From an uncultured Dehalococcoidia bacterium (lineage in GTDB: Bacteria; Chloroflexota; Dehalococcoidia; Lucifugimonadales; CAJWER01): DNA of 64,000 bases. Made by a program: the position numbers and the translations under genes. Positions within the stretch are counted from its first letter, which is position 1; each line of letters starts with the position of its first letter. The notes beneath the pieces are model-generated. The model was not told where the DNA came from. It ran no database searches and was given only the letters and a program-made list of their open reading frames with translations. The stretch spans positions 1,902,943 to 1,966,942 of the forward strand of contig OY282442.1 in assembly GCA_958296115.1 (NCBI GenBank), read 5' to 3'. Shown piece after piece: positions 26,244 to 38,824 of this stretch.

Positions 26244-26945
26244 TCAGTGGAAGTTGTAACGGGGATTGCGCCTGTCGGTCCAGCGCCTCGGACCGGCGCT
26301 GGGGTCATCGGTCTCTCTGGGCTGCTCCGGGGCAATGGGGCGCGCGCCCATCGCCAGCAGGTTCGAGTTGGCGGGGCTGTCCAGCGTCAGGAGCGGCTTG
26401 CCGGAGTCGGCGAGCTTGCGGGCTAGGGCCTCGGTCTTGCCGCTGGGCGCGGCGTGGGTTATGAAGACTCGGCTGGCGAGGGCTGCGACCATCTCGTTGC
26501 GCTGGGCCGCCAGCTCCATCGTCGGGCGTCGGCGGGATTCGGGGAAGGGTGAGAGGACGAGCAGTCGGCCTTGCGCGATGGGGGGCCGCCATTCGCGTGG
26601 GACGCGCATCTTCTCGACGCTGCGGGCTGGACAGACGACAACGGGCTGGCTGCCGCGGAGCAGCAGGCGCAGGCACTCCTTTTCCATCGGCGTCTGGAAT
26701 CCGCCTATGACGGGCTCCCCGGCGTCGCGCATGGCCCTGGCGAGGTCGTAGGTTTCCAGTATCAGGCTGCCGGGGCAGCGGATGGAGCAGAAGAGGGCGG
26801 TATGTTGGGCGTGCAGGGCTTCGGGGTCGCCGATGGCGTGGAAGCGGGCGTCCTCTTCGCTCGGCGCCATCAGTGTGTCGGAGCCAAGGGCAAGCGGTAT
26901 GGCGGAGGCCGCGAGATCGCCTGTTCGGGCGCGGTTGTGGTCCAT
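26244..26945 (-). CDS. short DprA/Smf-like (SLOG superfamily) protein
   Basis: It has the DprA Rossmann-core pattern: ALFCSIRCPG...AGEPVIGGFQTPMEKECLRLLLRGSQPVVVCPARS...GRLLVLSPFP...RNEMVAALASRVFITHAAPSGKT. It lacks the N-terminal SAM and C-terminal DML1 domains of full-length DprA. Confidence 0.65.
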   Translation of the reverse strand: MDHNRARTGDLAASAIPLALGSDTLMAPSEEDARFHAIGDPEALHAQHTALFCSIRCPGSLILETYDLARAMRDAGEPVIGGFQTPMEKECLRLLLRGSQPVVVCPARSVEKMRVPREWRPPIAQGRLLVLSPFPESRRRPTMELAAQRNEMVAALASRVFITHAAPSGKTEALARKLADSGKPLLTLDSPANSNLLAMGARPIAPEQPRETDDPSAGPRRWTDRRNPRYNFH

Positions 26946-27116
26946 GCCGAGAAATCTAGCACGGGCGTTCGCGTCGTGTCAAGGGGCTGCGCGGCCTTAT
27001 GAATGCGTCTGTTCTCCCGATGTCTCGAAATGCGGTTCCAGCTCCAACGTGAACTAGGGCCAACCCTTGGGGTTGCCCCTGCGTGTCCCCCGCCTGGATT
27101 TTCTTCACCAGGAGAG

Positions 27117-27850
27117 GGGGAGGTTGCAGGCGGGACGCCTGCGCTCCTGCGCCTATGTCGCGTTGTCTCGGCCGGCTCCTTTCTGTTGGCGCTTTGGCGG
27201 GTTCTGGCCGCTTCTGCGCCTGGCTTGGGTGACCTGAATCACCCTCGCTCTAGCCCTTTCCCCTAGGGGGAGGGGCGCAGGGCGGGGCGTTTGCCCTCAC
27301 CCTGGCCCTTTCCCCCGTGAGGGAGAGGGTACTTGGCGGGTCTTGGGACCCGCGTCCTGTCTACTCCTGGTTTCTCCCGCTCTCGCGGGAGATGAGTATG
27401 CCTTGCAAGGCAGTGACTCCGGTACTTGCTTCGAGGATGCCGACGTCGATCGCCCGCCGACACTGGGGGTGCAGCCCCTCCTCTAACTTTCCCGGACGGC
27501 TGACGGTCCCTTGCGGGACCGCCTGCGTTTCGCGCTTGGACCTTCCACCCGCCAAGGCGTCGGGCTGCGCTGGCTACGGTCCTCCCGGTCGTCCGAGAGT
27601 CCGCACCTGGAACGGGGGAGACGTATTTGGCACTACGTCCTCCTGGCGAGGCGCCGAACATAGAGGGACCTTCTCGTACCGCGGGGGCCCCGTCCCAACA
27701 ACAGCCGCGGCATGAATACCCTGAAGATTTGGTAGAGGTGGGCTCTATGCTCGTTTGGAGTACGCCCCTTCGAGCCGTCTACCAGACTAGCACGGCTGTT
27801 CTCGCGGTGTCAAGGGGCGCTATGGGGCAATTTTGGGGCAATTTTCGGGG
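27117..27850. repeat. composite ~0.7-kb repeat, copy A (REP-like modules plus 298-nt conserved core at 27361..27658)
   Basis: It aligns by eye with 57985..58695 in the same orientation. The cores differ by 1 indel and 2 substitutions. Confidence 0.85.
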
Positions 27851-27860
27851 GCAAGGCCGG

Positions 27861-27912
27861 GGAATCACCCTCACCCTAGCCCTCTCCCGTCGAGGGAGAG
27901 GGGATGGGGAGC
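27861..27912. repeat. REP-like hairpin element (family 1)
   Basis: The sequence is GGAATCACCCTCACCCTAGCCCTCTCCCGTCGAGGGAGAGGGGATGGGGAG. Confidence 0.8.
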
Positions 27913-28103
27913 GCTGTCGAGACGCCTGCGGTCCTAGGATGAGGCGCGTTCGGCGAGAGTGTGCTAGGGTTGCGGATGGCTGGGCAGGCATTCCAACGGA
28001 GGAGTTGACGAATGGCGAACGCGGGCGCGTGGAGCAAGGTCACGCCTGCCGGGTTGTTCAGGCGCGGCGAGACGCAGGAGTGGGACAGGAAGGGTGGCGC
28101 GGC

Positions 28104-30068
28104 GTGAGCGGCCTGAACATCAGCAACTTCATATGGGGCATCGCGGACGACGTGCTGCGCGACATCTACGTGCGCGGCAAGTACAGGGACGTCATCCTGC
28201 CCATGACCGTCATCCGCCGCCTCGACGCGGTCTTGGAGCCGACGAAAGACGCCGCGCTCGCCATGAAGGCCCGGCTCGACGCCGCCGGCGTAGTGAACCA
28301 GGACGCCGCGCTGCGCAGCGAGTCCGGCCACGCCTTCTACAACACGTCGCCCTTCCGCCTGCGCGACCTCACCTCACGCGCCCGGCGGCAGCAGCTCAGG
28401 GCCGACTTCGAGGCATACCTCGACGGCTTCTCGCCAAACGTCCAGGAAGTCCTGGACAAGTTCAAGTTCCGCAACCAGATACCCACGCTGGTCGAGTCCG
28501 ACGCGCTGGGCTTCCTCATCGAGAAGTTCACGGACGACTCCATCAACCTCAGCCCGAGTCCGGACGTGGGCGCGGACGGCGAGACGATGGAGGGACTCGA
28601 CAACCACTCGATGGGGACGATATTCGAGGAGCTGATCCGGCGCTTCAACGAGGAGAACAACGAGGAGGCGGGCGAGCACTTCACGCCCCGCGACGTGGTG
28701 GAGCTGATGGCCCGCTTGGTGTTCATGCCGGTAGCGGACGAGATACGCTCCGGCACGTATCTGGTCTACGACGGCGCTTGCGGCACCGGCGGCATGTTGT
28801 CGGTGGCCGAGAACACCCTATACGACCTTGCCCAAGAGCGCGGCAAGGACGTGTCCATTCACCTGTACGGGCAGGAGGTGAACGCGGAGACCTACGCCAT
28901 CAGCAAGGCCGACATGCTGCTGAAGGGCGAGGGCGAAGAGGCGGACAACATGAAGTACGGCTCCACGCTTTCGGACGACGCCTTCCCGTCCTACGAGTTC
29001 GACTTCATGCTCTCCAATCCGCCTTACGGCAAGTCTTGGAAGAGCGACATGGAGCGCATGGGCGGCAAGAAGGACCTCGACGACCAGCGCTTCCTGACAG
29101 GGCACGGCGGCGACCCCGAATACAGCCTCGCCACGCGCTCCAGCGACGGCCAGATGATGTTCTTGGCGAACATGTTGAGCAAGATGAAGCATGGCGCCCT
29201 GTTGGGCAGCCGCATCGCGGAGGTTCACAACGGAAGCTCGCTGTTCACGGGCGACGCCGGGCAGGGCGAGAGCAACATCCGGCGCTGGATAATCGAGAAC
29301 GACTGGCTGGAAGCCATCGTCGCCCTGCCGCTCAACATGTTCTACAACACCGGCATCGCCACCTACATATGGGTCTTGACCAACCGCAAGCCGAAGCATC
29401 GGCGGGGCTTCGCGCAGCTCATAGACGCATCGGGTTGGCACGAGCCGATGCGGAAGAACCTGGGGTCGAAGAACCGCGAGCTGTCCGGCGAGTGCATCCA
29501 GCGCATATGCGGCGCCTTCCTGGCGTTCGAGGAGAGCGAGCAGTCGAAGATATTCCCCAACGAGGCGTTCGGCTACCACAAGGTAACCGTCGAGCGTCCG
29601 CTGCGAATCGAGGGCGCCGAACCCGGGCGCGTGTACAAGCCGGCGGAGGCGAGGGCGCTGCGGGACCAGGGCAGGCGCTCGGAGGACGCTCCTCCGCTCA
29701 TACGCAGGCTCATCATGCGCGGCGCGAAGCCCGACCCGATGCGCGGCCTGTTCGAGGCCGTCATAGACGGCAAGCCGCGCGTCGTCGAGTATTGGCCCGA
29801 CCCGGACCTGCGCGACACCGAGCAGGCGCCGATGCTGGAAGACGACGGAGTCGAGGCGTACCTGCGGCGGGAGGTTCTGCCCTACGCCCCGGACGCCTGG
29901 CACGACCCCGCCAGCGTCAAGATAGGCTACGAGATAAGCTTCACGCGCCACTTCTACAAGCCGCAGCCAATGCGGGCGCTGGAGGAGATACAGGCTGATA
30001 TAATGGCGGCGGAGCGGGAGACGGAGGGGCTGCTGGCGGAGATAGCGGGAGCGGCCTCAGCAAGGTGA
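28104..30068 (+). CDS. hsdM: Type I restriction-modification system, DNA methyltransferase subunit M
   Basis: It has an HsdM_N-like N-terminus (NFIWGIADDVLRDIYVRGKYRDVILPMTVIRRLD), the AdoMet motif YDGACGTGGML, and the catalytic LSNPPYGKSW. The GTG at 28104 follows AGGAAGGG. The track ORF from 27627 runs through the upstream repeat. Confidence 0.9.
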   Translation: MSGLNISNFIWGIADDVLRDIYVRGKYRDVILPMTVIRRLDAVLEPTKDAALAMKARLDAAGVVNQDAALRSESGHAFYNTSPFRLRDLTSRARRQQLRADFEAYLDGFSPNVQEVLDKFKFRNQIPTLVESDALGFLIEKFTDDSINLSPSPDVGADGETMEGLDNHSMGTIFEELIRRFNEENNEEAGEHFTPRDVVELMARLVFMPVADEIRSGTYLVYDGACGTGGMLSVAENTLYDLAQERGKDVSIHLYGQEVNAETYAISKADMLLKGEGEEADNMKYGSTLSDDAFPSYEFDFMLSNPPYGKSWKSDMERMGGKKDLDDQRFLTGHGGDPEYSLATRSSDGQMMFLANMLSKMKHGALLGSRIAEVHNGSSLFTGDAGQGESNIRRWIIENDWLEAIVALPLNMFYNTGIATYIWVLTNRKPKHRRGFAQLIDASGWHEPMRKNLGSKNRELSGECIQRICGAFLAFEESEQSKIFPNEAFGYHKVTVERPLRIEGAEPGRVYKPAEARALRDQGRRSEDAPPLIRRLIMRGAKPDPMRGLFEAVIDGKPRVVEYWPDPDLRDTEQAPMLEDDGVEAYLRREVLPYAPDAWHDPASVKIGYEISFTRHFYKPQPMRALEEIQADIMAAERETEGLLAEIAGAASAR

Positions 30069-30074
30069 ACGACC

Positions 30075-30515
30075 ATGACTGCCATTTCGCAGACAACCGA
30101 GCTTACGCGGGAAGCGCTTCGCACTGCGTCCGACGGACATGCCAAGACGTTTGACCCCTTGGATGTTCCGGCGCGGCTGGACGAGTTCCGAGGCATGAAT
30201 GACGGCTGGCTCGAAGGGAGCGGTAGAGCGCCCGGCCATGCGGGGCTTGACTGGCTGTCCGCCAGCTTCCGCCGCTTCTACCCTGGCGATACCCCCTTGC
30301 CGCACACCTATCCCACTGACGAAGGCGGCGTCCGCATGGAATGGTCCTGCGGAAGCGACGTCATGGCGCTCGAGATAGACCTGGACACCCATCGCGGCGA
30401 ATGGCTCTGGTTCGACCGGGACTCCGACGACGAGCGCGAGCATACCCTGAACATGGACGCGAGCGCCGATTGGGAATGGCTTGCCCAGGAAATCAACGGC
30501 TCGCCTAGCGTATGA
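30075..30515 (+). CDS. hypothetical acidic, Trp-rich 146-aa protein (first gene of the cassette inside the R-M operon)
   Basis: The ATG is 7 nt after the hsdM stop. The composition is protein-like (GWLEGSG, LDWLSASF, GGVRMEWSCG, GEWLWFDRDSDDE). I recognise no family. Confidence 0.55.
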   Translation: MTAISQTTELTREALRTASDGHAKTFDPLDVPARLDEFRGMNDGWLEGSGRAPGHAGLDWLSASFRRFYPGDTPLPHTYPTDEGGVRMEWSCGSDVMALEIDLDTHRGEWLWFDRDSDDEREHTLNMDASADWEWLAQEINGSPSV

Positions 30516-30545
30516 TATACTGGCGCCTCGAGCGGGAGGATGACC

Positions 30546-31103
30546 ATGGCCAAGCGGCACAACGTGTTCATCAGCTACTATTACGAGCAGGATAAAGAAT
30601 GCAAAGACCGGCTCGTCAGAGCGCTTGGCGACGGCATCGTGGACATGTCGGTCAATATCGGCGACATAGTCGACGTCCAGAATCCCACGGAAGCGACCCT
30701 CCAGAGGATTCGAGAGGATCATATAGCCCAGGTATCCGTGACGATCGTTCTGATAGGCCCCTGCACCTGGCAGCGGAAATACGTGGACTGGGAAATCGGG
30801 GCCAGCCTGAGGGACACTCCCACAAACCCCAGATGCGGTCTGCTGGGCATCCTCTTGCCCACTCATCCAGCACACGGAAAGGAAAGATACGACCCTCACT
30901 TGATTCCGCCGAGATTGGCGGCTAATACAGGCGGGGACGATCCCTACGCATTGGTCTATAGGTGGGCGCTCGATAAAGAAGAGATCCTTGGTTGGATTCA
31001 CCGGGCGTTCCTGCGCAGGAAGAAGCAGCCAGACCCGGACATCAGCCTGAAGCCGTTTGGACGCAACTGGAACAGGCCTTGCTCGGAAGGCTGGCAGGGC
31101 TAA
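30546..31103 (+). CDS. TIR-like domain protein (DUF1863/ThsB-like)
   Basis: It shows NVFISYYYEQDKECKDRL..., VTIVLIGPCTWQRKYVDWEIGASL (the WxxxE region with the candidate catalytic Glu), and GLLGILLP. A GGGAGG lies 6 nt before the ATG at 30546. Confidence 0.75.
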   Translation: MAKRHNVFISYYYEQDKECKDRLVRALGDGIVDMSVNIGDIVDVQNPTEATLQRIREDHIAQVSVTIVLIGPCTWQRKYVDWEIGASLRDTPTNPRCGLLGILLPTHPAHGKERYDPHLIPPRLAANTGGDDPYALVYRWALDKEEILGWIHRAFLRRKKQPDPDISLKPFGRNWNRPCSEGWQG

Positions 31104-31114
31104 GCGAGGGCTAT

Positions 31115-31555
31115 ATGACAAGCAACACCAACCTCGGCGTGGAGTCGCCGGCTGTGCAGGCGCACCTGTCCATCATGCAGGGCGTCATACAGCGCATGGC
31201 GGAGAATAGCCGCTCGTGCAAGCTGTGGTGCATAGCGCTGGTCGCCGCCACGCTGGTCCTCGTGGCGCGGCTCGAAAGGCCGGAGTACGTCTTGTTGACG
31301 CTCCTCCCGGCCGTGATGTTCCTGGTACTGGACACGTACTATCTCGCGCTGGAGCGGGCGTTACGAGGCTCCTACGAGGGGTTCGTCGGGAAGCTTCACG
31401 CGGGCGGGCTCGCCGCGTCCGACCTGTACGAGGTGAAGCCGTCCGGCTCCGTGCCCAAGATCTTCGTGGCGTGCCTGCGGTCGTTTTCGATATTGCCGTT
31501 TTACATTACGCTCGTGGTTATGGTATCATTGGCGTGGTGGGTGGTTGGGCTATGA
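31115..31555 (+). CDS. small 3-TM membrane protein (candidate effector; SLATT-like by impression only)
   Basis: 146 aa. An N-terminal amphipathic helix is followed by KLWCIALVAATLVLVA, YVLLTLLPAVMFLVLDTYYLAL and SFSILPFYITLVVMVSLAWWVV. The ATG is 12 nt after the TIR gene stop. Confidence 0.6.
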   Translation: MTSNTNLGVESPAVQAHLSIMQGVIQRMAENSRSCKLWCIALVAATLVLVARLERPEYVLLTLLPAVMFLVLDTYYLALERALRGSYEGFVGKLHAGGLAASDLYEVKPSGSVPKIFVACLRSFSILPFYITLVVMVSLAWWVVGL

Positions 31556-31586
31556 GGGCTGGACCCCGGACGCCGGCTGAGGACAG

Positions 31587-31808
31587 ATGGAGCGAGAGAT
31601 GAACATTGGCGAGTTGACAATCTCCGATGAGGAGCGGGAGTTCACCGATCGGTTCGAGTCGTCGGAGGACCTGAGGCGGTTCTTCGAGGAGTGCGACGCC
31701 CGCGAAGGCCCAGGCGTGGAACCGGATTGGGAGGAGCATAAGCGCGTAATCGGCGAATCGCGGCTGCTCGGCCTGCCGGCCGCCGTGAAACTGGTCTGCG
31801 CCACCTAG
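31587..31808 (+). CDS. very acidic 73-aa hypothetical protein
   Basis: The sequence begins MEREMNIGELTISDEEREFTDRFESSEDLRRFFEECDAREGPGVEPDWEEH... It is co-directional and sits between the TM gene and the second TIR gene. Confidence 0.45.
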   Translation: MEREMNIGELTISDEEREFTDRFESSEDLRRFFEECDAREGPGVEPDWEEHKRVIGESRLLGLPAAVKLVCAT

Positions 31809-31837
31809 TAGAAATGCAACAGGCAGAGGAGTAAGTC

Positions 31838-32437
31838 ATGTCTGAGAATATACGGAACGTCTTTATCAGCCACATACACCAGGATGACGAAGGCCTGAAG
31901 GGTCTTAAGAGATTGGCGGAAAAACGCGGAATGGTTTGCCGTGACTCGTCAATCACTATTGGCAAATTCAATAAGGCTACCAATGAGGATTACATAAAGT
32001 ACCAAATACTAGCGCCACACATCCGATGGGCCAGTGTGCTTGTCGTGTACATCTCTCCTGACACCAAGTGCAGTCGTTGGGTGAACTGGGAGATAGAGTA
32101 TGCCTATAAACAGGGGAAGAGGATAATTGGGGTATGGGAATGGGGCGCGAGGGATTGCGACGTTCCCGAAGCCCTCTACCGTTATGGAGACACGGTAGTG
32201 GGCTGGAACGGAGAGAGCATTGTAGATGCGATAAACGGCAAGTCCACTGAATGGCGCAATAAGGTTGATTCCAAGCAGAATGATTCGATCATCACTGCCA
32301 TCATCGGTATTGGCTTGTGCGTGATAGCCTACAAGTTCATCCAGCATCGGAAACAGTCCGCCTATGAGAGATTTGGATATAGTGAGCCTGTGGTGGGCTA
32401 CAGAAGACCACGCAGTCCTCGCTTTTATCGGCGCTAA
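31838..32437 (+). CDS. TIR-domain protein with C-terminal transmembrane anchor
   Basis: It shows NVFISHIHQDDEGLKGL..., VLVVYISPDTKCSRWVNWEIEYAYKQGKRIIGVW, a TM helix IITAIIGIGLCVIAYKFI, and a basic tail. A GAGGAG RBS is present. The gene is markedly AT-richer than its neighbours. Confidence 0.75.
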   Translation: MSENIRNVFISHIHQDDEGLKGLKRLAEKRGMVCRDSSITIGKFNKATNEDYIKYQILAPHIRWASVLVVYISPDTKCSRWVNWEIEYAYKQGKRIIGVWEWGARDCDVPEALYRYGDTVVGWNGESIVDAINGKSTEWRNKVDSKQNDSIITAIIGIGLCVIAYKFIQHRKQSAYERFGYSEPVVGYRRPRSPRFYRR

Positions 32438-32501
32438 TATGCGCTGAATTGAGAGTTGAACTGCACCCAATAAGGCCGATCTTATAGGGTGGCTGGCTCG
32501 C

Positions 32502-33824
32502 ATGTTTGCTAACAATATCAAGCCCTACCCTGAGTACAAGCCTTCCGGCATTGAGTGGCTGGGAGACGCGCCGGCTCATTGGGAGAACAAGCGTGCAAAA
32601 TGGCTGTTCCGCAAAATGATTAGGCCAGTTCGGAAGAGTGATGAGATCATCACTTGTTTCCGTGATGGTACTGTGACGCTTCGGAAAAACCGTCGCGAGT
32701 CTGGGTTCACGGAGGCTTTAAAGGAGATCGGATATCAAGGCATTCGCCATGGCGACCTTGTTATACACAGTATGGATGCATTCGCTGGCGCTATTGGTGT
32801 GGCTGACTCAGATGGAAAAGGCAGTCCCATCTATGCGGTTTGCAAGGCCGGCGCTCTCGCAAATGCTCATTACTACGCACATCTTCTCCGCGAGATGGCC
32901 CACAACCAATGGATAAAAGCGCTGGCAAAAGGAATCAGAGAACGCTCGTCTGACTTCAGGTACACAGATTTTGGTTTGCAGCTACTCCCTCTCCCACCCC
33001 TCCACGAACAGGCCGCCATCGCGCGGTATCTGGACCATGTGGATGGGCGTATCCAGCGGTATGTTCGGGCGAAGGAGCGGCTGGTGGAGCTGCTGTCCGA
33101 GTATCGGCGGGCGGTCATCGAGCGCGCCGTTACGCGGGGGCTCGACCCGCACGTTCGCCTCAAGCCTTCGGGCGTCGAGTGGCTGGGGGACGTACCAGCG
33201 CATTGGGAAGTGCGGCGGCTGAAATATGTGGCAACTCTTATAATGGGACAATCTCCTCCATCCAGCGATTGCAGCGACACTCCAGTAGGGCTACCGTTCC
33301 TGCAAGGCTGTGCCGAATTCGGAACACGCCATCCAAGTCCCGTACAGTTCTGCCGTACCCCTGCTAAAGTCAGTCCAGCGGGTGCAATTCTTATGTCCGT
33401 CCGAGCGCCGGTAGGACGATTGAACATGGCAGATAGAGAATATGGTATTGGTCGGGGCCTCTGTGCCATTCTTCCCGACAATGAAATCCTGCACACAGGC
33501 ATTGCCCAATACCAACTTGAAGTGCTTGAACGCGGGTTGCTCTTGGCTTCAACCGGGTCAACCTACGATGCCGTCAGTATAGGTGATGTCGCCAGCCAAC
33601 CAGTCATACTTCCACCCATCGACGAGCAAGCCGCCATAGCCGACCACCTCGACGGGGTGACTGCCGGCATAGACGCGGCGGTTAGCCTGGCGCGTCGGCA
33701 GGCGGAGTTGATGCGGGAGTATCGGGCGCGGTTGATTGCGGACGTGGTTACTGGCAAGATAGACGTGCGCGAGGCGGCGGCGGGCTTGCCGGCTGGGGCA
33801 GACGAGCAGGCCGGTGCGCTATAA
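32502..33824 (+). CDS. hsdS: Type I restriction-modification system, specificity subunit S (two TRDs)
   Basis: The conserved central and distal helices LPPLHEQAAIARYLD and LPPIDEQAAIADHLD each follow a GVEWLG/IEWLG...PAHWE variable domain. Confidence 0.9.
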   Translation: MFANNIKPYPEYKPSGIEWLGDAPAHWENKRAKWLFRKMIRPVRKSDEIITCFRDGTVTLRKNRRESGFTEALKEIGYQGIRHGDLVIHSMDAFAGAIGVADSDGKGSPIYAVCKAGALANAHYYAHLLREMAHNQWIKALAKGIRERSSDFRYTDFGLQLLPLPPLHEQAAIARYLDHVDGRIQRYVRAKERLVELLSEYRRAVIERAVTRGLDPHVRLKPSGVEWLGDVPAHWEVRRLKYVATLIMGQSPPSSDCSDTPVGLPFLQGCAEFGTRHPSPVQFCRTPAKVSPAGAILMSVRAPVGRLNMADREYGIGRGLCAILPDNEILHTGIAQYQLEVLERGLLLASTGSTYDAVSIGDVASQPVILPPIDEQAAIADHLDGVTAGIDAAVSLARRQAELMREYRARLIADVVTGKIDVREAAAGLPAGADEQAGAL

Positions 33825-33870
33825 TGCCGCCGAGAGGCCGGCAGACGCCGCGAAGAGGTTTGGACATAGG

Positions 33871-34989
33871 ATGAGGAACAGGCTTCACTCGATAAAGCTT
33901 CGGGGGTTCAAGACGATTCACGGGCTCGACGGGTTCGAGCCTGGACCCCTGAGCGTGCTCATCGGCCCGAATGGGGCTGGCAAGTCGAACTTCATATCCT
34001 TCTTCCAGATGATGAATCAGACTTTGGATGACGAGTACGGCCTCTCGCTCTACGTGGCGCAGCAGGGCGGAGCAAGCAAGCTTCTCCACGACGGGCCCGC
34101 CACAACTACTGAAATGAGAGCAACAATAGAACTGGTGTCCCAAGACCGTACAAGTTTCCACTACTGTTTTCGGTTGGGTTACGCGGCGAGGGACACCCTG
34201 ATCTTTACTGACGAGCATCACCAACATTGGGTTTGGCCGGAGGATTACGGACAGCGCGAACGGGAAGAGGGCGAGCGCGAAAGCGGGCAGCGGTTTCCGC
34301 GGATTCTCATTCATGCAGACTATGGCACCCCCGCCAGCGTCACCTGGGCCTTTCTGATGAACATTGATGTACATCAGTTCCACAACACGTCGGCGACGGC
34401 CCGGATGCAGACCATGTGGCGGGTCAACGACAACCGCTACCTCAAGGAAGACGCGGGCAACATCGCCCCCGTGCTGCTCCGCCTGAAGAGGGAAGACGGC
34501 AGATGCTACCGGCGGATTGTGGATACTATACGTCTGATTCTGCCGTTCTTCTCGGATTTCGAGCTGGAGCCTGATAAAGGTCACCTGCTGCTCGCCTGGC
34601 GCGAGCGGGGCAGCGACCAGGTGTTCGACGTTTCGCAGGCGTCGGACGGGATGCTGCGGGTCATATCGCTGGTTACGCTCCTGCTCCAGCCGGAAGAGGG
34701 GCTGCCGGAGGTGCTGATACTGGACGAGCCGGAGCTCGGGCTGCACCCATCCGCCATCAACGTGATAGGGGGGCTGATACGCGCCGCGTCAACGAAGACG
34801 CAGGTCATCGCCGCCACGCAGTCCGCCGCGCTGGTGGACTGCTTCGAGCCGGAGGATATTGTGGTGGTCGAGCGCGAGGAGCGCAGGTCCGTGTTCAGGA
34901 GGCTGGACCCGGAGTCGCTGAGTGAATGGCTGAAGGAGTATTCGCTCTCGGAGCTGTGGGAGAAGAACGTGCTCGGAGGGCGGCCGTGA
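33871..34989 (+). CDS. ABC-type AAA ATPase (AAA_15/AAA_21, COG4637-like)
   Basis: It has Walker A GPNGAGKSN, an ABC-signature-like ASDGMLR, and Walker B VLILDEPELGLHP. The ATG at 33871 (MRNRLHSIKLRGFKTI) is preferred over the GTG at 33814, which would overlap hsdS. Confidence 0.8.
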   Translation: MRNRLHSIKLRGFKTIHGLDGFEPGPLSVLIGPNGAGKSNFISFFQMMNQTLDDEYGLSLYVAQQGGASKLLHDGPATTTEMRATIELVSQDRTSFHYCFRLGYAARDTLIFTDEHHQHWVWPEDYGQREREEGERESGQRFPRILIHADYGTPASVTWAFLMNIDVHQFHNTSATARMQTMWRVNDNRYLKEDAGNIAPVLLRLKREDGRCYRRIVDTIRLILPFFSDFELEPDKGHLLLAWRERGSDQVFDVSQASDGMLRVISLVTLLLQPEEGLPEVLILDEPELGLHPSAINVIGGLIRAASTKTQVIAATQSAALVDCFEPEDIVVVEREERRSVFRRLDPESLSEWLKEYSLSELWEKNVLGGRP

Positions 34990-35672
34990 TGGCGGCGAGG
35001 CTCAACTTCATAGTGGAAGGACAGACCGAAGAGACCTTCGTGAAAAACATCTTGGGGCCGCACCTGGAGAGCCTGTCCATAGAGACTGCGTGGCGAAGTG
35101 TAGAGACGGGCCGCAAGGGCGGCTACGTACATCGCGGAGGTCTCAGCAGATACGCGCAAGCGAAGAGGGACATAACCGCTTGGATGAATGAGGACGCGGA
35201 CGCGCGGTTCACGACCATGTTCGACCTGTATGGGCTTCCGGAGGACTTCCCGGGCAACAAGGACGAGGCGCTGACGGGCAACCCCTATCGGCGCGTCGAG
35301 GGCTTGGAGCAGGCGCTGCGCGAGGACATATCCGACCCGCGGTTCATTCCGTACATCCAGCTTCATGAGTTCGAGGCGCTGCTGCTGGCCGACCCCCAGA
35401 AGCTCGATGTTCAGTTCTACGACCGCCCCAAAGGAATACGCAGTCTCGTAACGATGGCGTCGCGCTTCGAGTCGCCCGAGCTGATAGACGAAGGGGGAGA
35501 AACCGCGCCGTCGAAGCGAATCATCAAAAAGATACCAGAGTATAAACATAGGAAGAGGTCAGCCGGCCCCATCGTGGCAAGCTACATCGGGCTGCCAACG
35601 CTGCGGTCGAGGTGCGCGCACTTCGGGGAGTGGGTCCGTGAGTTGGAGCGCGTCGGGCAGCCAACGGATTGA
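34989..35672 (+). CDS. DUF4276-like protein (Toprim-like partner of the ATPase)
   Basis: The ATG overlaps the ATPase stop (TGATG). The N-terminus LNFIVEGQTEETFVKNIL matches the DUF4276 pattern (acidic EGxxE) as I recall it. It also contains HEFEALLLADP. Confidence 0.6.
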   Translation: MAARLNFIVEGQTEETFVKNILGPHLESLSIETAWRSVETGRKGGYVHRGGLSRYAQAKRDITAWMNEDADARFTTMFDLYGLPEDFPGNKDEALTGNPYRRVEGLEQALREDISDPRFIPYIQLHEFEALLLADPQKLDVQFYDRPKGIRSLVTMASRFESPELIDEGGETAPSKRIIKKIPEYKHRKRSAGPIVASYIGLPTLRSRCAHFGEWVRELERVGQPTD

Positions 35673-35770
35673 TGGAGAGCGCAACGGCCTCTATCATAGT
35701 ATGAGCCGGGGTTGTGGATAGGAGAGATGCAAGCGGCGCTGGATTGCGATAACCGGGGGGTTCCGGGTTG

Positions 35771-38700
35771 ATGAGCAAGGCTACGGACACCAGCGAGCGG
35801 GGGCTGGAGCGGCTGATATGCGCGGCGCTGACCGGGTGGACGGGCGACGAGCCGCAGAGGGTGCGCGAGCGGCCGTCGACCTATGGGGCTGGGTGGCTTT
35901 GCGGCGACCCCCAGAGCTATGACCGCGAATACTGCGTGGACCTGGCGCAGCTTGCGGCCTTCCTGCGGGATACGCAGCCGGAGGCGGCCGCGGACCTCGG
36001 CCTCGACGCGGACGGCCCGGCGCGGCGGAGGTTCTTGGCGCGGCTGCAATCCGAGGTCGGCAAGCGCGGGGTGGTCGACGCGCTGCGCGGCGGCGTCAAG
36101 CACGGGCCGCGCGAGCTCGACCTGTTCTACGGGATGCCGTCCCCCGGCAACGCGGCGGCGGGCGAGCGCTATGGGGCCAATCGGTTCAGCGTAACCCGCC
36201 AGCTGCGGTACAGCCGGGGCAACGCTCAGCTGGCGCTCGACCTGTGCATGTTCGTCAATGGGCTGCCGATAGCCACGTTCGAGCTCAAGAACAGCCTCAC
36301 CAAGCAGACCGTCGATGACGCCGTTCGGCAGTACAAGCGAGACCGAGACCCGCGGGAGAGGCTGTTCGAGCAGGGCCGATGCATGGCGCACTTCGCGGTC
36401 GACGACCAGCAGGTCTATTTCTGCACGCATCTCAAGGGCGAGTCGTCGTGGTTCCTGCCGTTCAACCGCGGCTGGAACGACGGCGCGGGCAATCCGCCGA
36501 ATCCGAACGGGCTGAAGACCGATTACCTGTGGGAGGAGACGTTCACGCGCGACAGCCTGACGGACATCATCGAGAATTACGCGCAGGTCGTCGAGACCGG
36601 GGACAAGCGCGGCGGACGCAAGGGCAGGGCGCAGATATGGCCGCGGTTCCACCAGCTGGAGGTAGTGCGGAAGCTGCTGGCGGACGTGTCCGAGTCAGGC
36701 GCGGGACGCCGGTACCTGGTGCAGCATTCGGCGGGGAGCGGCAAGTCGAACTCGATAGCGTGGCTGGCGCACCAGCTCATCGGGGTGGAGCGTGACGGCG
36801 GGGCGCTGTTCGCCTCGGTGATAGTGGTGACGGACCGCGTGGCGCTGGACAGGCAGATTCGGGACACGGTCAAGCAGTTCGCGCAGGTGGCCTCGGTCGT
36901 GGGCCACGCGGAGCGGTCGGGCGACCTGCGGCGGTTCATCGAGCAGGGCAAGAAGATCATCATTTCGACGGTGCAGAAGTTCCCGTTCATCCTCGACGAG
37001 GTCGGGAGCGAGCATCGGGGGCGGCGGTTCGCCATCATCATAGACGAAGCGCATTCGAGCCAGGGCGGACGCGCCTCGGCGGCGATCTCGAAGGTTCTTT
37101 CCGAAGAGGGGGACGCCGAGGACGGCGATACGAAGGTTCTTTCCGAGGACGGGGCCGCCGAGGACGGCGATACGATGGAGGACGAGATCAACCGGCTCAT
37201 CGAGTCGAAGAGGCTCCTTCCGAACGCAAGCTACTTCGCGTTCACGGCCACGCCCAAGAGCAAGACGCTGGAGATATTCGGGGAGCGGGAGCGGCAGCCG
37301 GACGGAACGGGACGCCGCCGGCCATTCCATAGCTACACGATGAAGCAGGCCATTCAGGAGGGGTTCATCGTGGACGTGCTGGAGCGCTACACGCCGGTGG
37401 ACAGCTACTACAGGTTGGTCAAGACGGTGGAGGGCGACCCCGAGTTCGACACGAGGCGGGCTGGGAAGAAGCTGCGGCGCTACGTCGAGAACCACGAGCG
37501 GGCGATTCGCGTCAAGGCGGAGATAATGGTGGACCACTTCCACGAGCAGGCGCTGGCGTCGCGCAAGGTCGGCGGACAGGCTCGCGCGATGGTGGTGACG
37601 AGCGGCGTCCAAAGGGCAATCCGATACTATTACGCCATCAGCGCCTACCTGAAGGAGCGCAAGAGCCCGCACCGCGCCATAGCGGCCTTTTCCGGCGAGC
37701 ATGAGTACGAGGGATCGAAGGTTACAGAGGCGATAATCAACGGGTTCTCGTCGAGCAGGATAGCCGAGCGGATACGGAAGCACCCGTACCGGTTCTTGGT
37801 CTGCGCCGACAAGTTCCAGACAGGCTACGACGAGCCGCTGATGCACACGATGTACGTGGACAAGCCGCTGGCCGGAATCAAGGCGGTGCAGACGCTGTCG
37901 CGCCTGAACCGGGCGCACCCGGACAAGCACGACGCGTTCGCGCTCGACTTCGCAAACGACATAGACACCATTCAGTACGCCTTCTCCGACTATTACCGCA
38001 CGACCATCCTCTCGAAGGAGACCGACCCGGACAAGCTGCACGACATGAAGGCGCTGCTGGACGGCCGCCAGGTGTACACCCAGGATCAAGTCTCGGAGCT
38101 CGTCGAGCGCTGCCTCGCGGGGGAGAAGCGCGACAGGCTCGACCCGATTCTGGACGCCTGCGTCTCGGAGTACCTGGAGCAGCTCGACGAGGACGGCCAG
38201 GTGAGCTTCAAGGGGACGGCGAAGGCGTTCCTACGGGCGTATGGATTTCTGGCGTCTATCTTGCCCTATGGGTACGCCGAATGGGAGAAGCTCTCCATCT
38301 TCCTGGACTTCCTAACGCCCAGGCTGCCCGCGCCGGCGGAGGACGACCTGTCCCGGGGCGTGCTGGAATCCATAGACATGGATAGCTACCGGGCGGAGAA
38401 GCAGTCGGCGCAGGAGATCCGCCTTTCGGACGAGGACGCCGAGATCGAGCCGGCGCCAACCGACGGCGGGGGCGCCAAGCCCGACCCCGACATGGACCGG
38501 CTGTCGAACATCGTGCGGGACTTCAACGACAGGTTCGGGAACATCGACTGGAGGGACGAGGACAAGATAACGCGGGTAATCTTCGAGGACCTGCCGGCGA
38601 AGGTGGCTGAGGACAAGGCGTATCAGAATGCGATAGTGAACTCCGATCTCCAGAACGCGCGGATAGAGCACGACAAGGCCCTGAGGCAGGCCGTAACCGA

Positions 38701-38824
38701 TGGGCTTGCGGACCATGCCGAGCTGTTCAAGCAGTTCAGCGACAACGAATCGTTCCGCAAGTGGCTGATGGAGATGGTCTTCTCTATGACGTACAGGCCT
38801 GCCGAGCCCGCCAATGCGTCGTGA
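35771..38824 (+). CDS. hsdR: Type I restriction enzyme, R subunit (helicase-nuclease)
   Basis: It has an N-terminal nuclease region (LDLCMFVNGLPIATFELKN), helicase motif I HSAGSGKSNS, the DEAH box IIIDEAHSSQGG, later helicase motifs, and a long C-terminal domain. Confidence 0.9.
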   Translation: MSKATDTSERGLERLICAALTGWTGDEPQRVRERPSTYGAGWLCGDPQSYDREYCVDLAQLAAFLRDTQPEAAADLGLDADGPARRRFLARLQSEVGKRGVVDALRGGVKHGPRELDLFYGMPSPGNAAAGERYGANRFSVTRQLRYSRGNAQLALDLCMFVNGLPIATFELKNSLTKQTVDDAVRQYKRDRDPRERLFEQGRCMAHFAVDDQQVYFCTHLKGESSWFLPFNRGWNDGAGNPPNPNGLKTDYLWEETFTRDSLTDIIENYAQVVETGDKRGGRKGRAQIWPRFHQLEVVRKLLADVSESGAGRRYLVQHSAGSGKSNSIAWLAHQLIGVERDGGALFASVIVVTDRVALDRQIRDTVKQFAQVASVVGHAERSGDLRRFIEQGKKIIISTVQKFPFILDEVGSEHRGRRFAIIIDEAHSSQGGRASAAISKVLSEEGDAEDGDTKVLSEDGAAEDGDTMEDEINRLIESKRLLPNASYFAFTATPKSKTLEIFGERERQPDGTGRRRPFHSYTMKQAIQEGFIVDVLERYTPVDSYYRLVKTVEGDPEFDTRRAGKKLRRYVENHERAIRVKAEIMVDHFHEQALASRKVGGQARAMVVTSGVQRAIRYYYAISAYLKERKSPHRAIAAFSGEHEYEGSKVTEAIINGFSSSRIAERIRKHPYRFLVCADKFQTGYDEPLMHTMYVDKPLAGIKAVQTLSRLNRAHPDKHDAFALDFANDIDTIQYAFSDYYRTTILSKETDPDKLHDMKALLDGRQVYTQDQVSELVERCLAGEKRDRLDPILDACVSEYLEQLDEDGQVSFKGTAKAFLRAYGFLASILPYGYAEWEKLSIFLDFLTPRLPAPAEDDLSRGVLESIDMDSYRAEKQSAQEIRLSDEDAEIEPAPTDGGGAKPDPDMDRLSNIVRDFNDRFGNIDWRDEDKITRVIFEDLPAKVAEDKAYQNAIVNSDLQNARIEHDKALRQAVTDGLADHAELFKQFSDNESFRKWLMEMVFSMTYRPAEPANAS

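Follow-up and report, generated by a model that had tools for sequence, protein, structure and literature searches.

Five small genes lie between the methyltransferase and specificity genes of a type I restriction-modification (R-M) operon in an uncultured Dehalococcoidia genome, and the question they raise is whether together they form an undescribed defence system that couples TIR proteins to membrane proteins, as an original prediction made from the sequence proposed. In the window, by which we mean the whole 64,000-nucleotide stretch analysed, the ORF listing confirms the five co-directional open reading frames of that prediction between the hsdM stop codon at 30068 and the hsdS start codon at 32502; we refer to them as A to E. 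All lie on the forward (+) strand, as do the context genes hsdM (28113..30068; Pfam HsdM_N 5.5e-22 and N6_Mtase 1.8e-51, PADLOC MTase_I 1.4e-235), hsdS (32502..33824; PADLOC Specificity_I 3.5e-87, Pfam Methylase_S 3.3e-14) and hsdR (35768..38824), an ORF of 1018 aa with homology (phmmer E about 0) to the hsdR genes that related loci carry 3' of hsdS. The gaps from hsdM through A, B, C, D and E to hsdS measure 6, 24, 11, 31, 29 and 64 nt, an SD-like motif is found at every start of A to E, and the module is predicted to be co-transcribed with the hsd genes here. We conclude that B, C and E probably make up a type V Thoeris-like anti-phage signaling system embedded between hsdM and hsdS, and that this module is another example of a recently described class standing beside the broken leftovers of two unrelated modules.

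Genes B (30546..31103; about 190 aa) and E (31838..32437; 199 aa) encode ThsB-type TIR proteins of two clades, which we call B-type and E-type. Both exceed the curated cut-off of the Pfam family ThsB_TIR (PF08937), at 1.3e-14 and 3.8e-22 respectively, and both keep the catalytic glutamate in a W-E-I motif when aligned to BcThsB and EcThsB; in B this residue falls in YVDWEIG and aligns with that of BcThsB (6lhy/9b7d). Two candidate starts exist for B, at 30540 and 30546, and since a GGGAGG Shine-Dalgarno sequence abuts the former, 30546 is the likelier. E matches the PADLOC ThsB model PDLC00418 at 4.9e-64 over residues 3-149, and in its AF2 model (pLDDT 74.5) a low-confidence linker joins a beta-alpha core (residues 7-132) to a long helix (147-179). 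The best Foldseek match of this model is the B. cereus TIR protein 8fz9 (TMt 0.71-0.73), followed by the ThsB structures 9b7d, 8wcf and 6lhy, so that the TIR identity proposed for both proteins is borne out. B shares 41% identity with a ThsB of type VI Thoeris, and its family includes IMG 2620551309, which carries the label 'DUF2270 - Type V'. The nearest ThsBs of B are thus those of type VI, which produce 2'cADPR, and those of E are of type VIII (cADPR), which leaves the identity of the signal uncertain.

Gene C (31115..31555) encodes a 146-aa protein whose AF2 model, built as a monomer (pLDDT 81), is all-helical, with helices at residues 12-53, 56-96 and 127-145. Three membrane-length hydrophobic spans lie within these helices, and the family alignment has conserved hydrophobic blocks, in agreement with the prediction of a 3-TM protein. 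Its family is large, with 1,167 close homologues and 4,352 cluster representatives (50% identity) at E<=1e-3, and C keeps the family-invariant residues R27, K36, Y76, E80 and Y130. A Foldseek comparison of the C model with the PDB gave no significant fold match; the best hits, V-ATPase c-ring subunits at E about 1, were set aside as helical-hairpin noise. Neither C nor A and D match any Pfam or NCBIfam family, and permissive Pfam scans of 20 and of 67 C-family members returned nothing but sub-threshold DUF2270, with no Macro or SLATT domain. DUF2270 (PF10028) is the most recurrent Pfam family in the 67 diverse members, with sub-threshold matches in nine (best E 0.0012). All four PADLOC PDC-M50A models, in turn, match C (best 2.8e-25).

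Type V Thoeris consists of ThsB and a ThsF 'DUF2270' effector with three TM helices, predicted to form a heptameric channel with positive pockets between protomers (Yirmiya et al., bioRxiv 10.64898/2025.12.03.692087). C can be tied to this effector by two routes. First, a 155-aa homologue in locus L084 (L084:4531-4998), 51% identical to C (E 2e-45), is flanked by two TIR genes and is the sole non-hsd gene between them; IMG 2620551307 and 2620551309, both listed as 'DUF2270 - Type V' (Yirmiya 2025 Table S1), are exact substrings of those flanking TIRs. Second, on a Priestia plasmid, the 135-aa gene that directly follows a TIR gene matches the C-family profile (hhalign 99.5%, E 5.4e-23; hmmsearch 2.3e-29). 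This TIR shares 67% identity with the validated type V ThsB of Bacillus sp. 1NLA3E, and the small Priestia protein was chosen as a proxy for a validated ThsF by its position beside it. A tblastn search of plasmids with the B. thuringiensis DAR 81934 ThsB recovered TIRs that lack an adjacent small TM gene, and a search of plasmids with the V. cholerae ThsB gave no match. Yirmiya Table S1 also lists a '3TM' effector class, which was compared with the C family through its TIRs; these are only ~30% identical to E, and the class was not used.

Measured against the features that define type V Thoeris, C thus falls in the authors' ThsF protein cluster through its L084 homologue and the Priestia profile match and has the three membrane-spanning helices, and it is flanked by B and E as stand-alone ThsB-class TIRs with the catalytic glutamate. 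It does not reach the curated threshold of PF10028. Pfam searches at E<=0.1-10 found no PF10028 match in C, in the L081, L082 and L084 proteins or in the Priestia protein, and the 'DUF2270' link therefore rests on the preprint's cluster label together with weak matches in relatives. The second existing description that covers the module is the PADLOC candidate PDC-M50 (Payne et al. 2024, guilt-by-embedding; PADLOC-DB v2). It was derived from genes that lie within BREX, DISARM or type I R-M systems, and we found no published functional test of it in the literature searched. M50A and M50B models match adjacent genes in the window, the M50B matches being weak (B 1.9e-10, E 7.5e-07) and both TIRs scoring better against ThsB models, whereas the canonical PDC-M50B, a 165-aa TIR upstream of the TM gene (L036, 1.4e-68), is absent. 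PDC-M50A and ThsB are the only PADLOC models that match C or E, apart from the weak PDC-M50B match to E. The original prediction had named capture by an existing defence model as grounds for refuting it, and with PDC-M50 and type V Thoeris such capture has occurred; the word 'undescribed' does not hold for a pair so catalogued.

The remaining two genes have a different origin. Gene A (30075..30515; 146 aa, pI 4.4, 7 Trp) is a truncated PDC-M32A: it matches the PADLOC PDC-M32A model at 1.2e-38 over profile positions 250-369 of 376 only, and in tblastn aligns only with residues 222-377 of a full-length 383-aa homologue (L011:5341-6492). PDC-M32 comprises a full-length M32A (about 376 aa) and M32B (about 125 aa). 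M32B is present in L011, L026, L006 and L040, with intact M32A/M32B pairs in the first two, and tblastn finds none in the window. Gene D (31587..31808; 73 aa, pI 4.45) matches only residues 45-89 of a VapB-type antitoxin, at 78% identity, and its RHH core is gone. Full D homologues are 82-96 aa long, start with an RHH segment (MARVQLIIPDEDRDRF...AWLRAAA) and precede a PIN/VapC gene (for example L019:5667-6065, PF01850 2.1e-19); such pairs of RHH antitoxin and PIN toxin are intact in L003, L005, L019 and L037, and no VapC occurs anywhere in the window. Judging from these alignments, A is the C-terminal third of PDC-M32A and a leftover of another embedded candidate system, D is what remains of a VapB after an internal deletion, and neither belongs to the Thoeris module. 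M32A/B and VapBC occur in related loci as separate complete modules at variable positions, and A and D are debris of other modules that commonly occupy this hsdM-hsdS slot.

The fragment status of A and D weighs directly on the idea that all five genes form one new system, made of two analogous units whose TIRs are restrained by the acidic proteins or by R-M. Tight spacing, shared direction and an SD-like motif at each gene are what one system would show, and A resembles D in being very acidic (pI about 4.4). Against this, no related locus pairs A or D with a TIR gene, homologous modules lack both, and the GC3 of the five genes is far from uniform, ranging from 0.585 to 0.857. The Rosetta-stone argument, by which E would be a fusion of what B and C hold separately, does not stand either: the tail of E and the C protein are not homologous, and E variants with a tail still cluster with a C homologue. 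Comparative context largely refutes the five-gene system, which we regard as extremely unlikely. Pfam and PADLOC give no match to SLATT, Macro, SAVED or STING in A to E, and the prediction's exclusion of Thoeris types I and II was correct, with no SIR2, SLOG or Macro match in any of the five proteins (Pfam, PADLOC, NCBIfam).

What does hold up from the prediction is that the TIR and membrane proteins act as a unit. A TIR gene adjoins the C family in 70 of the 82 copies examined (about 85%), across many phyla; 68 of these copies adjoin a ThsB-type TIR and two more a TIR-TPR protein. In more than 35 loci a B homologue is the gene immediately 3' of C. Homologues of C also travel with TIR genes outside R-M loci. 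Five kinds of TIR partner accompany C, namely B-type, E-type, short U-type, the 165-aa PDC-M50B type and TIR-TPR, and constancy of C beside variable TIRs is the pattern expected of a Thoeris effector with interchangeable sensors. The same pattern argues against a scheme in which the TIRs are NAD+-depleting effectors and C a membrane sensor or scaffold, with no second messenger. Many bacterial TIRs are indeed NADase effectors, E carries a membrane anchor of its own, and no ligand-binding domain can be recognised in C; yet B and E are short stand-alone TIRs of the ThsB class (PF08937), which make signals in types I-XI, one conserved membrane protein with up to three interchangeable TIR clades is a Thoeris effector/sensor layout, and the homologous family is filed as ThsF. 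We consider NAD+ depletion of this kind quite improbable.

E departs from most of its relatives at the C-terminus, which is a single TM helix followed by a basic tail. Its homologues are mostly 157-158 aa long and end without this tail, which is common to a minority (P0132, P0155, P0208, P0225 and P0236); the tailed forms are the last gene of TIR-ThsF-TIR-TIR(TM) clusters. By its sequence, then, E is a tail-anchored ThsB variant, of which we found no discussion in the literature searched. Together with the multi-clade TIR set, it is the minor novelty of this locus.

We propose that the module works as validated type V systems do. By that analogy, phage infection would lead one or both TIRs to turn NAD+ into a cyclic ADP-ribose-type signal, with B predicted to be an infection sensor and signal synthase and E probably a variant ThsB kept at the membrane by its C-terminal anchor. 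C, the predicted signal-gated membrane effector, would probably form a ring-shaped homo-oligomer that binds the signal at the conserved polar and basic cytoplasmic residues R27, N31, S32, K36, D73, Y76 and E80; binding would open or disrupt the membrane, aborting the infection and giving a defence phenotype. The conserved residues R27, R33, K36, R81 and R84 of C are compatible with the positive pockets of the type V effector but do not prove them. Production of 3'cADPR by the TIR upon infection, effector toxicity triggered by it and protection against phage have been reported for the B. thuringiensis DAR 81934 system only, and one type V system is not activated by 3'cADPR (bioRxiv 10.64898/2025.12.03.692087).

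The likeness to type V Thoeris lies in stand-alone ThsB-class TIRs beside a three-TM effector some 135-155 aa long. Validated type V systems come from Bacillus and have two genes, whereas here two TIRs of different clades, one of them tail-anchored, share an effector that scores below the PF10028 threshold, the TIR clades are nearest to type VI and VIII ThsBs, and the system is embedded in a type I R-M operon of a high-GC genome most closely related to Dehalococcoidia/Chloroflexota MAGs. Types II (ThsB with Macro-TM) and VII (ThsB with SLATT) resemble the module in sending a TIR-made, ADPR-derived signal to a membrane-disrupting effector, but C has neither a Macro nor a SLATT domain. A '2TM-1TM-TIR' system of P2/P4 hotspots, reportedly from work by Rousset et al. 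in 2022, likewise combines a TIR protein with small TM proteins; it differs, by its description, from the 3-TM effector and ThsB-class TIRs of the window, and the literature search returned no papers under that name.

The position of the module within the operon could suggest a functional tie to R-M. PrrC in the EcoprrI hsd locus and TgvAB in the type I R-M locus of Vibrio VPI-2 (PMC11411939) are likewise defence modules placed between hsd genes and co-transcribed with them, and a Thoeris module coupled to type I R-M in the manner of PrrC would be restrained by HsdMSR and freed upon phage anti-restriction attack. Predicted co-transcription here, and the placement of homologous modules between hsdM and hsdS or beside hsdM in 26 of 80 species-representative loci and additionally in L082 and L084, fit such coupling. 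About two thirds of the homologous modules, however, have no R-M genes around them, among them every two-gene TIR-ThsF locus from distant phyla, and validated type V systems function without R-M. The hsdM-hsdS slot also hosts unrelated modules (AbiE, HNH, PDC-M32, VapBC, M78/DUF4411 and HEC-01), mixed contents in line with what Payne et al. 2024 describe as a general 'embedding hotspot'. Between hsdS and hsdR of this operon lies a second, independent embedded candidate module (33814..35672, + strand), consisting of the ABC-type ATPase HEC-01A (PADLOC 3.6e-122, Pfam AAA_21 2.1e-27) and the TOPRIM-like DUF4276 protein HEC-01B (PADLOC 5.3e-74, Pfam DUF4276 2.9e-50). Restraint by R-M, as by the acidic proteins, is thus not supported by the comparative record, and we judge a PrrC-like coupling highly improbable.

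A traffic of modules through the slot raises the further question of whether B, C and E still function. GC3 is 0.905 in hsdM, about 0.86 in C, 0.585 in E, about 0.59 in hsdS, which is low like E, and 0.887 in hsdR, a mosaic that indicates repeated recombination; tRNA and Rfam scans around the island revealed neither an integration site nor an RNA component. Among the loci examined, B precedes C elsewhere only in L022, where the two genes alternate in a tandem C-B-C-B array, and the window lacks the short TIR that usually lies upstream; with two degraded neighbour genes as well, the module could be rearranged or decaying. At the extreme, the locus would be a non-functional remnant whose three TIR and membrane genes were left from a rearranged array. 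We think this improbable, because B, C and E are full length for their families and keep the catalytic glutamate and the family-invariant residues, start codons and SD motifs are intact, and an architecture of C plus one TIR is common in other loci.

Within the preferred type V-like reading, a bolder version can be put forward tentatively, although we doubt it as it stands: the Chloroflexota-type ThsF module as a multi-sensor Thoeris, in which up to three ThsBs of different clades feed one ThsF pore. These may be the short upstream TIR, a B-type protein related to the 2'cADPR-producing ThsBs of type VI, and an E-type protein related to the cADPR-producing ThsBs of types VII/VIII and tail-anchored in a subclade. 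In that case the signal for this ThsF clade would be a cADPR isomer other than the 3'cADPR shown for Bacillus, or more than one isomer, and the tail anchor would place signal production at the effector. In a weaker variant, the hsdM-hsdS embedding seen in about a third of loci may represent regulatory coupling to R-M.

The main value of this analysis is a correction: a supposed undescribed TIR-TM system is already covered by PDC-M50 and the type V Thoeris class, and two of its five supposed components are gene fragments from other modules. The ThsF-like family that emerges is very large, with more than 4,000 representatives at 50% identity, and since the Pfam DUF2270 model misses it, standard annotation will keep overlooking it. 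In uncultured Dehalococcoidia/Chloroflexota MAGs the family is common; there its partners are TIRs of several clades and, in some cases, a membrane-anchored ThsB. The hsdM-hsdS slot in which it sits here is a recombination hotspot that collects and erodes small defence modules.

The original prediction placed five small co-directional ORFs between hsdM and hsdS, and all five lie exactly where it put them, on the forward strand of a type I restriction-modification (R-M) operon: an acidic ORF A (30075-30515), a TIR ORF B (30540/30546-31103), a three-transmembrane (TM) ORF C (31115-31555), a second acidic ORF D (31587-31808), and a TIR ORF with a C-terminal helix, E (31838-32437). Intergenic gaps across this block are 6-64 nt, and a Shine-Dalgarno-like motif precedes every start. 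The operon runs from hsdM (about 28113-30068, + strand) through A-E to hsdS (32502-33824, + strand), an ABC-type ATPase gene with a DUF4276 gene, and hsdR (35768-38824, + strand). The ATPase-DUF4276 pair (33814-35672) matches the PADLOC candidate models HEC-01A (ABC/AAA_21 ATPase; 3.6e-122) and HEC-01B (5.3e-74) and represents a second embedded candidate module, with the HEC-01A start overlapping the hsdS stop; HEC-01 showed no defence in the assay of Payne et al. 2024. Housekeeping genes flank the island on its outer sides, and scans around it for tRNAs and Rfam families gave no match. In the listed hsdM ORF the start is a TTG at 27627, with the conserved domain only from near 28113. AT skew is unusual (-0.36 at 27000-27499) in the region upstream of that HsdM_N domain (27000-28112). 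None of the ORFs there has a family match, nor is there a tRNA or Rfam match. A 233-aa ORF (26244-26945) runs on the opposite strand just upstream of the R-M island and has no Pfam match at 1e-5.

The TIR identity of B and E is borne out: both pass the Pfam ThsB_TIR threshold (1.3e-14 and 3.8e-22, respectively), and alignment to solved ThsB structures shows that both keep the catalytic glutamate, within WEIG in B and WEIE in E. In an AlphaFold2 model of E (pLDDT 74.5), a disordered linker joins a TIR-like beta-alpha core to a long C-terminal helix; Foldseek ranks a B. cereus TIR protein and several ThsB structures as the closest matches to this model. C is all-helical with three TM helices (model pLDDT 81). 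Neither Pfam nor NCBIfam assigns it to a family, and no PDB structure matches it. It is, however, matched by all four PDC-M50A models of PADLOC (best 2.8e-25). A word-indexed search returned 1,167 homologues of C, typically 55-70% identical, and an exhaustive profile search expanded the family to 4,352 cluster representatives at E<=1e-3. Eleven positions are invariant or near-invariant in 67 diverse members (R27, N31, S32, K36, W38, D73, Y76, E80, S123, F129 and Y130), and the conserved residues are polar or aromatic.

Two lines of evidence connect C to a described defence system, and the proposal of an undescribed module does not survive them. First, the pairing of C with TIR genes is that of PADLOC PDC-M50, a TIR-plus-TM pair; PDC candidates entered PADLOC after being defined through 'guilt-by-embedding' within loci of BREX, DISARM and type I R-M systems (Payne et al. 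2024). Second, the C family falls within the effector class of type V Thoeris. Yirmiya et al. (Dec 2025, bioRxiv 10.64898/2025.12.03.692087) list 29 putative types of Thoeris and provide validation for types V-XI. In type V the effector is ThsF, a 'DUF2270' protein that has three TM helices and for which they model a heptameric channel whose pockets carry positive charge; 3'cADPR activates it in the B. thuringiensis system. Table S1 of that preprint associates the TIRs of IMG genes 2620551307 and 2620551309 with 'DUF2270 - Type V'. A protein identical to a Table S1 TIR (P0242, 100% identity) lies on a contig of GCA_001753035.1 (locus L084) with the order hsdM - AbiEi - AbiEii - TIR164 - 155-aa protein - TIR191 - hsdS - hsdR, and both Table S1 TIR domain sequences are exact substrings of its two TIRs. 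The gene for the 155-aa protein, which they flank, is 51% identical to C (E 2e-45), and this places the C family inside the preprint's ThsF class. The setting in L084 is the same hsdM-hsdS slot as in the window. After hsdR, L084 also carries another gene for a ThsB_TIR protein, of 157 aa, and one with an Nmad2 domain (L084:10071-10576), which may form a further TIR-based module. Table S1 additionally lists a separate '3TM' putative effector class with 100 TIRs, which are only about 30% identical to E.

An independent test agrees with placing the C family in the ThsF class. A Priestia megaterium plasmid encodes a TIR that shares 67% identity with the validated type V ThsB of Bacillus sp. 1NLA3E, and directly downstream lies a 135-aa protein that we used, by its position beside the TIR, as a stand-in for validated ThsF. 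The C-family profile matches it with an hhalign probability of 99.5% (E 5.4e-23; hmmsearch 2.3e-29), and the two share the motifs H-L-x3-Q-x2-I-x-R-M-A-x-N-S and L-D-x3-L-x2-E-R-x-F-R. As a caveat, the Pfam threshold for PF10028 is not reached on C or on the ThsF proxies, and PF10028 is only the most recurrent sub-threshold Pfam match in the family (9 of 67 members, best E 0.0012).

We sampled gene neighbourhoods of C homologues at 80 loci from species-representative genomes, mostly Dehalococcoidia/Chloroflexota MAGs with others from Latescibacterota, Desulfobacterales, Nitrospirota, Omnitrophota, Verrucomicrobiota, cyanobacteria, purple sulfur bacteria and two archaea, plus three loci from exact-protein look-ups. 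At least one ThsB-class TIR gene is directly adjacent on the same strand in 68 of 82 C copies. In two more, from Thiorhodococcus drewsii (L066:7384-9579) and Rhabdochromatium marinum (L072:7422-9827), a TIR_2-TPR protein of 731-801 aa follows the C homologue in place of a short ThsB, possibly representing a sensor-fused form of this system. Upstream of C the partner is a 165-aa TIR equivalent to PADLOC PDC-M50B (1.4e-68 in locus L036) or a short 'U' type of 129-146 aa; downstream it is a B-type TIR of 190 aa or an E-type TIR, the latter also found after B. The usual arrangements are TIR-C, C-B, U-C-B, U-C-E and TIR-C-B-E. A single conserved small membrane protein served by TIR genes that are interchangeable and often several in number is the hallmark of a Thoeris effector and its ThsB sensors. 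Apart from the window, a B-type TIR upstream of a C gene was seen only inside a tandemly duplicated ThsF-ThsB pair (C-B-C-B, L022:6998-10208) between hsdM and hsdS, and the absence of this order elsewhere suggests rearrangement in the window.

The membrane tail of E had been read as a Rosetta-stone fusion of the separate TIR and TM genes. Of the 1,061 E-type homologues, most are 157-158 aa long and lack a terminal TM segment, and a hydrophobic helix with a basic tail like that of E occurs in a minority (P0132, P0155, P0208, P0225 and P0236; 51-57% identity over nearly full length), marking the tail as a genuine, recurrent variant. In both contexts examined (L081 and L082), a TIR-ThsF-TIR-TIR(TM) cluster ends with the tail-bearing TIR. 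This TIR accompanies the three-TM protein rather than replacing it, and its tail is not homologous to that protein, which removes the Rosetta-stone argument. The tail still fits a picture of ThsB acting at the membrane next to ThsF.

The acidic genes A and D (pI about 4.4 for both) had been proposed as partners of the TIRs, giving two analogous units. Their alignments instead identify each as a fragment of a different module. Of the 376 positions in the PDC-M32A model, A matches only 250-369 (1.2e-38), aligning to residues 222-377 of a full-length 383-aa homologue; intact PDC-M32A+B pairs lie between hsdM and the ThsF module in loci L011 and L026, and no M32B was found within the window. D keeps only residues 45-89 of VapB-type relatives, at 78% identity; full-length relatives (82-96 aa) have an N-terminal ribbon-helix-helix segment, and a PIN-domain VapC gene (PF01850, 2.1e-19) comes after them, but no VapC was found within the window. 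Neither the acidic-partner nor the two-unit idea therefore holds. VapBC and M32 modules occupy varying positions around Thoeris genes in other loci. Short versions of the PDC-M32A C-terminal domain (164-168 aa) occur with intact M32B (L040:5532-6038, L006:5563-6057), so this domain may also be genuinely stand-alone and A may not be pure debris.

Restraint of the cassette by the R-M complex, as for PrrC, had also been suggested. Of the 80 representative loci, 26 carry R-M genes within 7 kb, with the module usually between hsdM and hsdS; the remaining loci have none within that distance, among them two-gene TIR-ThsF loci bordered by housekeeping genes (uvrB and dnaG, for example). C homologues do travel with TIR genes outside R-M loci. 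Elsewhere the hsdM-hsdS slot holds AbiE, HNH, M78/DUF4411, PDC-M32, VapBC or HEC-01; sharing it is a known embedding phenomenon and is no evidence for coupling of the PrrC type. Within the operon (28113-38824), GC3 is strongly mosaic: 0.905 in hsdM, 0.887 in hsdR, 0.857 in C, 0.824 in D, about 0.76 in HEC-01, 0.748 in A, 0.718 in B, about 0.59 in hsdS and 0.585 in E. The operon was evidently assembled piecemeal, by separate acquisition events, and E was possibly imported together with the current hsdS.

Taken together, the observed domain identities, the family membership and the conserved adjacency best support a reading of B and E as sensors and of C as the effector. We propose that B and E would act as ThsB sensor/synthases and C as a ThsF-like, signal-gated membrane effector, probably an oligomeric pore, whose activation would lead to abortive infection and hence a defence phenotype. 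The signal is uncertain because the nearest relatives differ: B shares 41% identity with a ThsB of type VI, which produces 2'cADPR, and E shares 34% with a ThsB of type VIII, which produces cADPR. What remains new is a tail-anchored ThsB subclade, a multi-clade TIR complement, and the abundance of the C family in uncultured Chloroflexota despite its poor Pfam coverage.
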